From the NCBI RefSeq assembly GCF_057098645.1, contig NZ_CM169472.1: a stretch of DNA of 64,000 nucleotides. One strand, 5' to 3'. The position numbers are program-made. Each line of letters opens with the position of its first letter. Position 1 is the first letter of the stretch. Shown here in pieces: positions 54,001 to 60,000 of this stretch.

Positions 54001-57000
54001 GTTCATTTGCGGGAACGCCTGAAAACAGGTGACATATGGGTTGATGGTAGTCGGGCCTGGCGTAGTTTTGAGGACTACCTTCTTCCTCACCATGTTTTCG
54101 GGCAGATGCGGGCAGAATCCCGGCTGGGACTTGCCATTCCGGACAACTTTGCTGAATGGCGGGCTGAGCGAACCACCACACTCAACGCAAAACTGAAAGC
54201 GCTGGCAAAAGCTGCTTCGGAGAATGCCATACCCGATGCAGAACTTTCCAGCAGAGGGTTGTCTGTGTCTCCGATTCGCGAAGAAGAGAGCGACAAAATT
54301 AAGGCTCTCAGCCGTAAACTCTACATGCTGGTACCACGCATCAGAATTACCAGTTTGCTGGCAGAAGTTCATAGCTGGACCAGTTTTCTTGATTGTTTCA
54401 CCCATTATCGCACCGGGGAACAGGCGGAAGATGAAGCTGCACTTATGGCTGCGATCCTTGCCGATGCGACGAATGCGGGAGCAGAACGGATGGCGCAGAG
54501 TTCCCGGGGTGTCACCATTCACCAGATGATGGTAATGATGGATCGTCATTTACGCACTGAAACCTATGCGTCTGCCACATCAGTTCTGGTCGATGCGCAA
54601 CAGGAACATCCTTTTGCTGCTATATGGGGGGATGGGCATGTGTCATCCTCGGACGGGCAGTTTTTTCCTGCGGGTGGACGAGGAGAAGCCAGCCTCGAAT
54701 ATAACGCCAAATACGGCAAACGACCTGGCGCGTCGATTTATGGTTTTTTATCGAACCGTTTTGCATCCTTTTTTTCCAGAATGATTCAGGCCTCTGAAAG
54801 CGAGGCTCCCTACGTACTTGACGGCTTACTTCATAACGAAAGTTCTGTGGTAATTCATGAGCATGCCACCGATACAGCCGGTGCGACTGAAACAACATTT
54901 TCAATGTTTCACTCTTTTGGTTACAGACTCATACCCCGTATTCGCAACCTCGGCAGTCGCAGGTTGTACGTTATTTCCCCCTCAGAGGAATATAAACCAC
55001 TTGATGCCCTGATCGCCGGAAAGGCCAAAATGGAAGTAATAGAACAGCACTGGGATGAAGTTCTGCGGCTTAAGGCCTCGATCGGCGCTGGTCTGGTACC
55101 ACCATCGGTAATACTGAAAAAGCTGGCAGCATCTCCGAGACAAAACAGGCTCAATCTGGCCCTGCGTGAAATGGGACGTATTGAACGCTCAATTTTTATC
55201 TGTGACTGGTTGCTTGACACTCGGTTACGTCGCAGATCACACGCAATCCTCAACAAAGGCGAAAGCCGCCATGCACTTGCCCGCGCTATTTTTCTTCACC
55301 AACTGGGCGAATTCCGGAACAGGGCTGCCGAGACAATGGCTCACAGGGCATCGGGCCTCAACCTTGTTGTTAATGCAATAATTCTGTGGAACACGGTCTA
55401 TCTCAGTCGGGCTGTTGATTACATTCGCAGCCAGGGGATCATTATACCGGAAGAGCTCTTGTCCAGTGTATCACCACTACCATGGGGTCATATCTCGCTC
55501 ACTGGAGATTACCTGTGGAACGAAATTGACCATCCCCTTGAACGATACAGGCCACTTCGTACTAATCGCTTCAATCCAAAGAACTTCACTTTTCCTTAGC
55601 GTGTGTTATCGCAGAAATGCCCACGGAACCCCTTTAAGCGCAACCTATGGACAAACAGGGAACAAAGTTTCAGCCGGAACCGTCCAGTCAGTCATTGGTG
55701 TCACTTTTATCTATGAATAATTGTGATTTTGACCTTAGTCTATGCGCTCCATTCACGAAAATTGCGCGGATAATTATTTTGTGAAAGCTATTATCCTACA
55801 CCTGTAAGAAAATCCGCGCACAATTGAAGCCAGAGTCTTATTTTTTATATTAAAAAATATGTTAATTTAAACACTATGAGAGATGATGCTTACCTTATCG
55901 TATTTAATCTATTGTTTAACGATAATAGATTAAAAATAGAAAGAGAGTAGTCCCCTACTCTTATATATCCATGTTGGCGATAATCCCTTTGTATGTACTG
56001 TGCATCATCGCTATTACAAATCCTAATAATTCATTTCCACACAGGATAAGTAGATGAAGAAAAAAATTGAATCCTACCAGGGTGCTGCCGGTGGTTGGGG
56101 TGCTGTTAAATCCGTAGCGAATGCAGTACGTAAGCAGATGGATATACGCCAGGATGTTATTGCCATGTTTGACATGAATAAGCCAGAGGGCTTTGACTGT
56201 CCGGGTTGTGCATGGCCAGATCCTAAGCACAGTGCGTCATTCGACATTTGTGAAAACGGCGCAAAAGCAATCGCCTGGGAAGTCACGGATAAGCAGGTAA
56301 ACGCCTCTTTCTTTGCTGAGAATACGGTTCAATCATTACTTACCTGGGGAGACCACGAGCTTGAGGCTGCGGGGCGACTCACTCAGCCTTTGAAATATGA
56401 TGCCGTCAGCGACTGTTACAAGCCATTAAGCTGGCAACAAGCTTTCGATGAAATTGGCGCACGCCTTCAAAGCTATAGTGATCCCAATCAGGTTGAATTC
56501 TATACTTCGGGCCGCACTTCCAATGAAGCTGCCTTTCTTTATCAGCTTTTTGCCCGTGAATACGGGAGCAATAACTTTCCCGACTGCTCCAACATGTGCC
56601 ATGAACCGACAAGCGTGGGTTTGGCAGCGAGTATCGGTGTAGGTAAAGGGACCGTGTTGCTGGAAGACTTTGAGAAGTGCGATTTAGTCATTTGCATTGG
56701 GCATAACCCTGGTACAAACCACCCTCGCATGCTGACTTCGTTGCGCGCTTTAGTGAAACGGGGAGCGAAAATGATCGCCATCAATCCTCTACAGGAACGT
56801 GGCCTGGAGCGATTTACCGCACCGCAAAACCCGTTTGAAATGCTGACGAACTCTGAGACTCAGTTGGCCAGTGCCTACTACAACGTGCGCATTGGTGGCG
56901 ATATGGCGTTGCTCAAGGGGATGATGCGCCTGTTAATTGAGCGCGATGATGCTGCAAGTGCCGCAGGTCGGCCCTCATTGCTTGATGACGAATTTATTCA

Positions 57001-60000
57001 AACGCATACCGTCGGCTTTGACGAGCTACGCCGTGACGTTCTCAATTCCGAGTGGAAAGATATCGAACGTATTTCTGGACTAAGTCAGACACAAATCGCC
57101 GAACTGGCTGACGCATATGCCGCTGCCGAACGCACCATTATCTGTTACGGAATGGGGATCACTCAGCACGAACATGGTACCCAGAATGTACAGCAACTGG
57201 TCAATCTGCTGTTGATGAAAGGTAACATTGGCAAGCCTGGAGCGGGTATCTGCCCACTACGTGGCCACTCTAATGTACAGGGCGACCGAACCGTCGGTAT
57301 CACCGAGAAACCGTCTGCAGAGTTTCTGGCTCGCCTGGGTGAGCGCTATGGCTTCACCCCACCTCAAGCACCTGGACATGCTGCAATTGCCAGCATGCAA
57401 GCAATATGTACAGGGCAGGCTCGAGCATTGATCTGCATGGGGGGCAACTTTGCACTGGCAATGCCAGATCGGGAAGCGAGCGCTGTACCGTTAACGCAAT
57501 TAGATCTGGCGGTACACGTAGCCACTAAGCTTAACCGCTCTCATCTGCTGACCGCACGGCATAGCTATATTCTGCCGGTTCTGGGACGTAGCGAGATTGA
57601 CATGCAAAAAAGCGGTGCGCAGGCGGTAACCGTTGAGGATTCAATGTCGATGATTCATGCCTCGCGTGGCGTGTTAAAACCCGCCGGTGTAATGCTGAAA
57701 TCAGAGTGTGCAGTGGTCGCGGGAATCGCGCAGGCAGCACTACCCCAGAGCGTGGTAGCCTGGGAGTATCTGGTGGAAGATTATGATCGCATTCGCAATG
57801 ACATTGAAGCTGTGCTGCCAGAGTTCGCCGATTATAACCAGCGCATCCGACATCCTGGTGGTTTTCACCTGATAAACGCTGCTGCTGAAAGGCGCTGGAT
57901 GACGCCGTCAGGTAAGGCTAATTTCATTACCAGCAAAGGGCTGTTAGAAGATCCCTCTTCAGCGTTTAACAGTAAGCTGGTCATGGCGACAGTACGCAGT
58001 CACGATCAGTACAACACGACGATTTATGGTATGGATGATCGTTATCGAGGGGTATTCGGTCAACGAGATGTGGTCTTTATGAGTGCTAAACAAGCTAAAA
58101 TTTGCCGTGTAAAAAACGGCGAAAGAGTTAATCTTATTGCGCTTACGCCAGACGGTAAGCGCAGCTCACGCCGCATGGATAGATTAAAAGTGGTCATTTA
58201 CCCTATGGCTGACCGCTCACTGGTGACCTATTTTCCAGAATCGAATCACATGCTAACACTTGATAACCACGATCCATTAAGTGGCATTCCTGGCTATAAA
58301 AGTATTCCGGTTGAATTAGAACCATCAAATTAATGCCTCTTCTCATTTCTTCTGCTGTCATCCGCACAGCAGAAGAATTCCTCATTGACTATTATCGCGC
58401 AATTTGCTCACATGGATTAAATTAAACTACATACTATAAGATATAAACTTCTGCCTACAGCTGTAAGAAACTCCGCTCAGTACTGAAGCACCAGTCCTAT
58501 TTCCTCTTTTCTCCAGCCTGTTATATTAAGCATACTGATTAACGATTTTTAACGTTATCCGCTAAATAAACATATTTGAAATGCATGCGACCACAGTGAA
58601 AAACAAAATCACGCAAAGAGACAACTATAAAGAAATCATGTCTGTAATTGTGGTTGTCTTATTACTGACCCTTACGTTGATAGCCATTTTTTCGGCAATT
58701 GATCAGCTGGGCATTTCAGAAATGGGTCACATTGCAAGAGATCTTACACATTTCATTATCAATAGTTTGCAAGACTGAAAATAAACAGCAAATTATAAAT
58801 ATGAAATGTTAAAAAAGTATCGATAAAAACTTTATTGTTTTAAGGAGATAAAATGTCGCTCGTTTGTTCTGTTATATTTATTCATCATGCCTTCAACGCT
58901 AACATTTTAGATAAAGATTACGCCTTCTCTGACGGCGAGATCCTGATGGTAGATAACGCTGTTCGTACGCATTTTGAACCTTATGAGCGGCATTTTAAAG
59001 AAATCGGATTTAATGAAAATACCATTAAAAAATATCTACAATGCACTAACATCCAGACAGTGACGGTGCCTGTTCCTGCGAAGTTTTTACGTGCTTCAAA
59101 TGTACCGACTGGATTGCTTAATGAAATGATTGCTTATCTCAACTCGGAAGAACGCAATCATCATAATTTTTCAGAACTTTTGCTTTTTTCTTGCCTGTCT
59201 ATATTTGCCGCATGCAAAGGTTTCATTACACTATTAACTAACGGTGTGCTATCCGTTTCCGGGAAAGTGAGAAATATTGTCAACATGAAGCTGGCGCACC
59301 CATGGAAGCTGAAAGATATTTGTGACTGCCTGTACATCAGTGAAAGCCTGTTGAAGAAAAAACTAAAGCAAGAGCAAACGACATTCTCACAGATTCTATT
59401 AGATGCCAGAATGCAGCACGCAAAAAATTTGATACGCGTAGAAGGTTCAGTCAATAAAATTGCCGAACAATGTGGTTATGCCAGTACATCTTATTTTATT
59501 TATGCGTTCCGCAAACATTTCGGCAACAGTCCGAAGAGAGTTTCTAAGGAGTACCGTTGTCAAAGTCACATGGGTATGAATACGGGCAACACGATGAATG
59601 CTTTAGCTATTTGATTATTTGCTAACGAGTAGTCAACCACGCACCCTACGTAAAAATTAAAAATGGGGCAGTCATTCCCTGCCCCGCGTTGTTTTTAGGC
59701 GATATATTTATTGAAATAAATAAGTGACATTCATCACATATTTATGCATTTGCATAACTTGTTGCATGATTATTTATGATCTCAATTCGGCATTTTGTTA
59801 GTAAAATACAATAATTTATTAAATATCAATAGATTAGTTGTTTATCGTCGAGAAATTACTTAGTAGAACAAAAAGTAATGTCAACGCTTTATGGACTGTT
59901 ATTTCCCTTTTTTTAGCTAAATCTGCTATCTCTTTATGTGACTAACTTCACTTACATCCACTTATTTCTCTTCGTAAAATTACTTTGGAATTAAGTACAA

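Follow-up and report, generated by a model that had tools for sequence, protein, structure and literature searches.

Two EvgA boxes upstream of ydeP and safA-ydeO share an in-register promoter arrangement in Escherichia coli

Two 18-base palindromes located upstream of ydeP and of safA-ydeO in the 64-kb stretch of E. coli DNA analysed here (the window) are real and correspond to EvgA binding sites already described; the object is known, and is found here in a further strain of E. coli. They are very probably operators for EvgA, an acid-response regulator of the NarL/FixJ family, at two separate tandem promoters in the ydeP / safA-ydeO acid-resistance cluster, which is E. coli-specific. Common to both promoters, in the same register, are the box, a 35-bp stretch running to the -35 region and an extended -10. 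Positions are those of the window, and all features described below are on the plus strand.

The ydeP box, ATCCTACACCTGTAAGAA, reads ATCCTACA-CC-TGTAAGAA and lies at 55793-55810, while the safA-ydeO box, TGCCTACAGCTGTAAGAA, reads TGCCTACA-GC-TGTAAGAA and lies at 58452-58469. To score them, we used the 18-bp inverted repeat 5'-TTCPyTACA-N2-TGTAPuGAA-3', which we take to be the EvgA-box consensus. Each box shows one mismatch to TTCYTACA-N2-TGTARGAA (TTCYTACANNTGTARGAA), confirming at the exact positions the claim of the earlier note that two 18-mers fit this consensus. With up to one mismatch allowed, these were the only matches on both strands of the window, and none was obtained in 100 dinucleotide-preserving shuffles of the window (0 expected). 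With up to three mismatches, they were again the sole two matches, for 0.64 expected. The ydeP box contains ATCC in the window and AGCC in its K-12 counterpart, so that the window box is one base nearer the consensus. On the K-12 chromosome (NC_000913.3), the ydeP and safA boxes correspond to 1586730-1586747 and 1584071-1584088, respectively. A second, degenerate box located 5' of safA, AAACTACA-TAC-TATAAGAT (58424-58442), was rejected, its spacer being 3 bp long and its left half not conserved. The consensus itself was corroborated in K-12, where the palindrome recurs in the emrK-evgA intergenic region, upstream of frc and twice upstream of yfdX (4 matches in 20 kb compared to 0.28 expected). 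The EvgA box of emrKY was reportedly described by Kato et al. 2000, and those at ydeP, b1500/safA, yfdX, frc and evgA are said to appear in Masuda & Church 2003, Eguchi et al. 2007 and Itou et al. 2009; the footprints of these four studies reportedly place EvgA on this 18-bp repeat. When one genome per species was scanned with CTACANNTGTAAGAANNTCCGC, two Escherichia contigs and 9 chance matches (about 9 expected) were recovered, and no orthologous sites were found outside Escherichia, in agreement with the published restriction of evgAS and safA-ydeO to E. coli (PMC5706723).

The genes located downstream of the boxes were identified as ydeP (56054-58333, 759 aa) and as safA (58581-58778) followed by ydeO (58853-59614; 58581-59614 in total), as the earlier note had assigned them. 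In this E. coli chromosome, one box stands upstream of ydeP and the other upstream of safA-ydeO. Direct regulation of the ydeP promoter by EvgA has been reported (PMC7174508), safA and ydeO form an operon whose promoter is likewise controlled directly by EvgA (bioRxiv 10.64898/2026.05.06.723403; PMC5706723), and all genes directly regulated by EvgA carry an EvgA binding site (PMC4283999). Both boxes are found upstream of an operon whose dependence on EvgA is known from the literature (PMC7174508, PMC5706723, bioRxiv 10.64898/2026.05.06.723403). A Tn3-family transposon is inserted within ydeQ, and 161 bp separate it from the ydeP box downstream; despite it, the acid-resistance cascade has both of its EvgA-dependent promoters intact in the window strain. 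Between the two transcription units, a stem-loop is present 3' of the ydeP stop codon (58347-58377; stem of 12-13 bp, -17.5 kcal/mol, z -4.15), and its stem is kept in L004, a divergent Escherichia lineage, with the loop swapped for an approximate reverse complement of itself. This stem-loop is likely a 3' end or a stabiliser that sets ydeP apart from the safA promoter. In one paper, ydeP, safA and ydeO are regarded as a single operon (PMC11052181), and read-through from the ydeP promoter may occur because the hairpin has no U tract.

We then compared the sequences following the two boxes. Over the 90 bases located 3' of the boxes, 52 are identical in an ungapped alignment whose register was locked by the boxes, against 25.1 +/- 4.1 in 20,000 dinucleotide shuffles, none of which reached 52; the identity is 6.6 sd over the shuffles. 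The safA flank matched the ydeP flank better than did any other non-self segment among all 127,820 segments of 90 nt in the window, both strands included. Local BLAST aligned 55795-55843 with 58454-58502 (79.6% over 49 nt, gapless, E = 2e-7 against the whole window). The similarity of the flanks claimed in the earlier note is thus upheld by formal alignment. It had been said to start about 40 bp 3' of each box, but the shared blocks begin directly after it: tccgc at +3 to +7, tgaag at +15 to +19 and agtcYtattt at +24 to +33 from the box. A weaker likeness extends to about +90 and includes TGTTAwwTTAA at +50 to +60. Overall, some 50-100 bases are alike between the two promoters. Beyond the promoters, BLAST of the 5' UTRs and coding starts of ydeP and safA detected no likeness.

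The stretch linking the box to the core promoter covers 55811-55845 at ydeP (AAtCCGCgCA, TGAAG and AGTCTTATTT; the proposed -64 to -30 region) and 58470-58504 at safA (AcTCCGCtCA, TGAAG and AGTCCTATTT), and 24 of its 35 positions are identical between the two in the locked register. To look at its conservation, we compared both promoters in eight strains including L004, in which the coding sequence of ydeP has 88% identity to that of the window and intergenic identity is only 77%. The module is kept in register in all eight strains. The ydeP box varies only at outer positions 1-2, in the central N2 and, in L004, by A>G at position 8, and the safA box varies only at position 1 and in the N2 spacer. 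Constraint is found on the half-sites and not on N2 or the outermost bases, position 8 of the L004 ydeP box being the sole exception. Between the window and L004, identity reaches 89-94% in the box compared to 47-53% upstream of it, then 83-86% in the next 35 bp (86% at ydeP, against 47% upstream of the box, and 83% at safA, against 53%), 57-71% in the following 14 bp and 92% in the TGnTAwwTTAA block. Within the extended -10, only the 'n' of TGn is altered in L004, by T>C at both promoters. Altogether, the box, the next 35 bp and the TGnTAwwTT extended -10-like element are kept in L004, whereas the upstream DNA and the 14-bp spacer are variable.

This pattern points to predicted core promoters. 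At safA, the extended -10 TGTTATATT (58519-58527) ends with the hexamer TATATT (58522-58527), which is the first -10-like hexamer 3' of the box and the sole one preceded by TG. The ydeP promoter carries, at the same offset from its box, the extended -10-like TGTTAATTT (55860-55868; TG at 55860-55861, hexamer TAATTT at 55863-55868); this proposed -10 has 3 of the 6 consensus positions and leans on the TG. Judging from the conservation, transcription is predicted to start near 55875 for ydeP and near 58534 for safA, which in K-12 (NC_000913.3) would be near 1586665 and 1584006. The centre of the box would then be near -73 (about -73.5), a class I activator geometry that depends on the inferred -10. 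A third core-promoter candidate, TTAAAC-18-TAACTT / TTAAGC-18-TAACGT, is partly conserved.

We propose that at mildly acidic pH, EvgS would phosphorylate EvgA, and that a dimer of EvgA~P would bind each 18-bp inverted repeat and recruit RNA polymerase to a core promoter located at a set distance 3'. This core promoter would be weak, combining a poor -35 with an extended -10. ydeP and safA would in this way have independent promoters activated by EvgA~P. The presence of box, 35-bp stretch and extended -10 in one register most likely means that a promoter cassette was copied between the genes, or that one architecture was imposed on both. The earlier note had suggested a shared promoter module for the EvgAS-controlled acid-resistance genes. 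This holds for ydeP and safA, in register in eight strains, but not as a general feature of EvgA promoters: the ydeP/safA flank was found at no other EvgA promoter, and the remaining pairs of EvgA promoters have 18-36 identical positions out of 90. frc and yfdX have a flank common to those two and unlike that of ydeP/safA. Counted from the first base of the box, -10-like hexamers also begin after 66-71 nt at safA, emrK, yfdX and frc. A more specific scenario, which we put forward only tentatively, is that the promoters of ydeP and safA are paralogues, derived from a cassette of ~50-105 bp that comprised EvgA box, spacer and extended -10 and was duplicated inside the E. coli-specific ydeP-safA-ydeO island. 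In parallel, frc and yfdX would share a second cassette, and the regulon would have grown partly by copying of whole promoters and not by de novo boxes. The spacer blocks A.TCCGC.CA, TGAAG and AGTCYTATTT would form a functional element not yet described, for instance a contact for alpha-CTD or a second-factor site.

Could the palindromes and the flank likeness have arisen by chance in AT-rich intergenic DNA, without function? The promoter regions have a GC content of 30-39%, and at up to three mismatches 13 of the 100 window shuffles yield at least two motif matches. Yet the stricter threshold left the shuffles empty, both matches precede known EvgA targets, the flank identity stands far above its own shuffles and is unequalled in the window, and the module is far better conserved than its surroundings in the divergent L004. 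The one-mismatch shuffles, the flank test and the L004 conservation effectively refute chance, to which we give next to no weight. A different account of the spacer blocks comes from the kinship of EvgA with BvgA, whose nearest relative in E. coli it is. A.TCCGC.CA, TGAAG and AGTCYTATTT could be low-affinity sites for extra EvgA dimers spreading from the box towards the -35 region, as BvgA does at Bordetella fha, and not contacts for RNA polymerase or a relic of duplication. The conserved blocks sit about 21 and 42 bp away from the centre of the box, TCYTA inside AGTCYTATTT looks to us like the core of the left half-site, and AGTCCT is found again at emrK at the matching offset. Contrarily, a scan for secondary EvgA half-sites 3' of the boxes, with a weight matrix built on 12 half-sites, gave only background scores to the blocks (-0.9 to 1.8 bits compared to 10-12.5 for real half-sites), unlike the multi-dimer arrangement of BvgA, and frc and yfdX differ in sequence at that position. 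We therefore regard such spreading as quite improbable.

The ydeP start could also be placed elsewhere. TTGAAG(55824)-16-TATATT(55851), covering 55824-55851, is the sole match of a sigma-70 consensus scan in the region, is closer to consensus than the proposed ydeP -10, and its TTGAAG overlaps the conserved TGAAG block. Transcription from it would start near 55858, with the box centre near -57, and the likeness in register with safA would reflect another shared factor (H-NS, PhoP or YdeO); repression by PhoP and feedback by YdeO have been reported at the safA promoter (bioRxiv 10.64898/2026.05.06.723403). Against this, the TATATT hexamer is TTTATT in L004 and is without counterpart at safA, which has CTCTTTTC there, and within the module conservation is lowest in the 14 bp that hold the hexamer. 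A scan made to find a PhoP box in the safA promoter remained at background with 3 mismatches allowed (191 matches for 173 expected) and is uninformative. We consider this alternative unlikely and favor the extended -10 element kept at both promoters.

The EvgA sites at ydeP and safA are already known. The shared flank adds a neat detail but does not amount to a new system, and the value of these results is mostly annotation, with little beyond. The conservation in register does provide a testable map of both promoters, consisting of the box, the 35-bp conserved stretch, a free spacer and the extended -10. There is a hint, too, that EvgA promoters occur as look-alike pairs, which could guide promoter dissection and reporter design. 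Compared to the published EvgA boxes of the EvgS/EvgA regulon, the window sites are identical in motif, genes and organism and show no substantive difference; the in-register downstream likeness and the conservation pattern may already have been noted there. The BvgA promoters of Bordetella (fha, ptx) resemble those described here in having a homologous NarL/FixJ-type regulator, an unorthodox phosphorelay and a weak core promoter with a dimer bound to an inverted repeat far 5' of it. They differ by the several dimers bound down to the -35 region, while no secondary half-sites are detectable by sequence at ydeP and safA. Finally, as at class I sigma-70 promoters (e.g. CRP at -61.5 or -72.5), a single dimer site is predicted about 73 bp upstream of the start, the -35 being poor and the -10 aided by a TG; the position of the site at ydeP and safA depends on a start inferred from conservation.

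The 18-mers that the earlier note had read as EvgA boxes upstream of ydeP (56054-58333, plus strand) and of safA-ydeO (58581-58778 and 58853-59614, both plus strand) were found at exactly the positions it gave: ATCCTACACCTGTAAGAA at 55793-55810 and TGCCTACAGCTGTAAGAA at 58452-58469, each with one mismatch to TTCYTACANNTGTARGAA, which we take to be the EvgA box consensus. On both strands of the 64 kb, only these two matched TTCYTACANNTGTARGAA with at most one mismatch, and 100 shuffled windows gave no such match. The K-12 evgAS region served as an independent test of this consensus. 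There, the same pattern occurred four times in 20 kb against 0.28 expected: one site lies between emrK and evgA, one precedes frc and is a perfect palindrome, and the other two precede yfdX. The K-12 ydeP and safA sites were also recovered, and the operons carrying the pattern in K-12 are those named as EvgA targets in the literature. The boxes are the known EvgA box at known genes in another strain, presumably the very sites footprinted in Kato 2000, Masuda & Church 2003, Eguchi 2007 and Itou 2009.

The window is E. coli chromosome: over 55633-58700 it matches O145:H28 strains at 100% and most of 5,386 genomes at 97-99% identity. A 3.8-kb Tn3-family transposon (51845-55632), 161 bp upstream of the ydeP box, interrupts the fimbrial gene ydeQ in its 3' end; ydeQ is intact at this point in O145 reference strains. 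The element ends in inverted repeats of about 38 bp, is bordered by a 5-bp TTTAA duplication (51840-51844 and 55633-55637) and contains a recombinase ORF (52020-52652, 210 aa) and a transposase ORF (52633-55599, 988 aa); most of its copies at 99.9% identity are carried by E. coli plasmids. At 55794 the ydeP box varies among strains: K-12 and one other genome carry AGCCTACA. The form ATCCTACA, one base nearer the consensus, is found in the window, in four further E. coli strains and in a divergent lineage. At 58424-58442, with 10 bp separating it from the safA box downstream, is a degenerate box-like sequence with a 3-bp spacer, AAACTACA-TAC-TATAAGAT; the left half lacks conservation, and the TAAGATATA part is kept in all strains. 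In the genome scan, sites were seen within Escherichia only, because evgAS and safA-ydeO are restricted to E. coli (PMC5706723). A 13-kb contig (JARKOR010000108.1) assigned to a 'Candidatus Nanosynbacter' metagenome-assembled genome has ydeP-safA at 98-99% identity to E. coli with both boxes, and is almost certainly a binning contaminant.

The similarity noted downstream of the boxes survived formal alignment. An ungapped alignment registered on the boxes showed identity at 52 of the 90 bases that follow them, a value reached by none of 20,000 dinucleotide shuffles (25.1 +/- 4.1 identities). Among all 127,820 window segments, self-matches aside, the safA flank resembled the ydeP flank most closely, and BLAST against the window aligned 55795-55843 with 58454-58502 (79.6% over 49 nt, E = 2e-7). 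No similarity between the two was found upstream of the boxes or deeper into the transcripts. It is specific to this pair, other EvgA promoter pairs giving 18-36/90; AGTCCT is common to emrK and safA, and another block, CTCTCTGATT, is common to frc and yfdX at one offset. The longer form of that block, AAATG.C...G.CTCTCTGATT, lies downstream of the box at the same offset in the frc and proximal yfdX promoters (15380-15524 and 16400-16518, minus strand, of K-12 NC_000913.3 2478000-2498000). As these two have their own common block, EvgA promoters seem to occur as look-alike pairs. The resemblance between the ydeP and safA promoters, extended and in register, is solid; it may reflect a duplicated promoter cassette, and is a small addition to the known EvgA system.

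Both promoters were aligned across eight genomes. The divergent lineage, one of the eight, is labelled E. coli, yet is a separate species-level representative (identity to the window 87.8% for the ydeP coding sequence, 75% for safA, 89.9% for ydeO). Counted from the box start, window-to-lineage identity at ydeP and safA, respectively, was 47% and 53% upstream of the box, 94% and 89% in the box, 86% and 83% in the next 35 bp, 71% and 57% in the following 14 bp, and 92% at both in the block TGnTAwwTTAA (67-78). With one exception, the positions that vary among strains inside the boxes are the outer two bases and the N2 in the centre, and the sole change in the TGn element is its 'n' (T->C, both promoters). 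A chance origin of boxes and flanks is ruled out by the shuffles at one mismatch or fewer, the flank statistics and this conservation.

Judged from sequence, the pattern is promoter-like, with a putative operator, upstream/-35 region, free spacer and extended -10. It places predicted -10 hexamers at 55863-55868 (TAATTT, ydeP) and 58522-58527 (TATATT, safA); transcription would then start near 55875 and 58534, with the box centred near -73. At safA, emrK, yfdX and frc, -10-like hexamers have the same spacing, beginning 66-71 nt from the box start. A candidate alternative at ydeP, TTGAAG-16-TATATT, is consensus-like but not conserved, and a third candidate promoter lies further downstream. The presumed ydeP 5' leader holds a short hairpin, AGAGTAG-TCCC-CTACTCT (55944-55961), flagged by the terminator scan on the minus strand; in the divergent lineage an A>G change leaves only G-U pairing in plus-strand RNA.

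ydeP-safA-ydeO has been called one operon (PMC11052181). Just after the ydeP stop, before the safA box, lies a strong hairpin (58347-58377, -17.5 kcal/mol) with no U tract, so some read-through from ydeP into safA is possible. Its stem is conserved in the divergent lineage; its 7-nt loop, CATCCGC, is there ACGGATG, a near-exact reverse complement, as if flipped. The PhoP-box scan, run at a looser threshold, was at background as a whole and a PhoP box was not distinguishable from it; TGTTTAGTCACGGTTTA (45275-45291) matches the PhoP-box direct repeat (T/G)GTTTA-N5-(T/G)GTTTA perfectly and precedes the major subunit gene of the ydeQRST-type fimbrial operon by about 290 bp, and a one-mismatch copy (46279-46295) lies between that gene and the chaperone gene.

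EvgA activates the ydeP promoter directly and fast (PMC7174508), safA-ydeO is an operon whose promoter is EvgA-regulated and PhoP-repressed (bioRxiv 10.64898/2026.05.06.723403; PMC5706723), and all direct EvgA targets are marked by an EvgA binding site (PMC4283999). On this literature we judge the textbook explanation the best: phosphorylated EvgA dimers would bind both palindromes and, once bound, would activate two separate, weak promoters. Alternatively, extra EvgA dimers might spread over the conserved blocks, as BvgA does. A half-site weight matrix gives this reading no backing; since such secondary sites can be nonspecific, it stays a less likely alternative.
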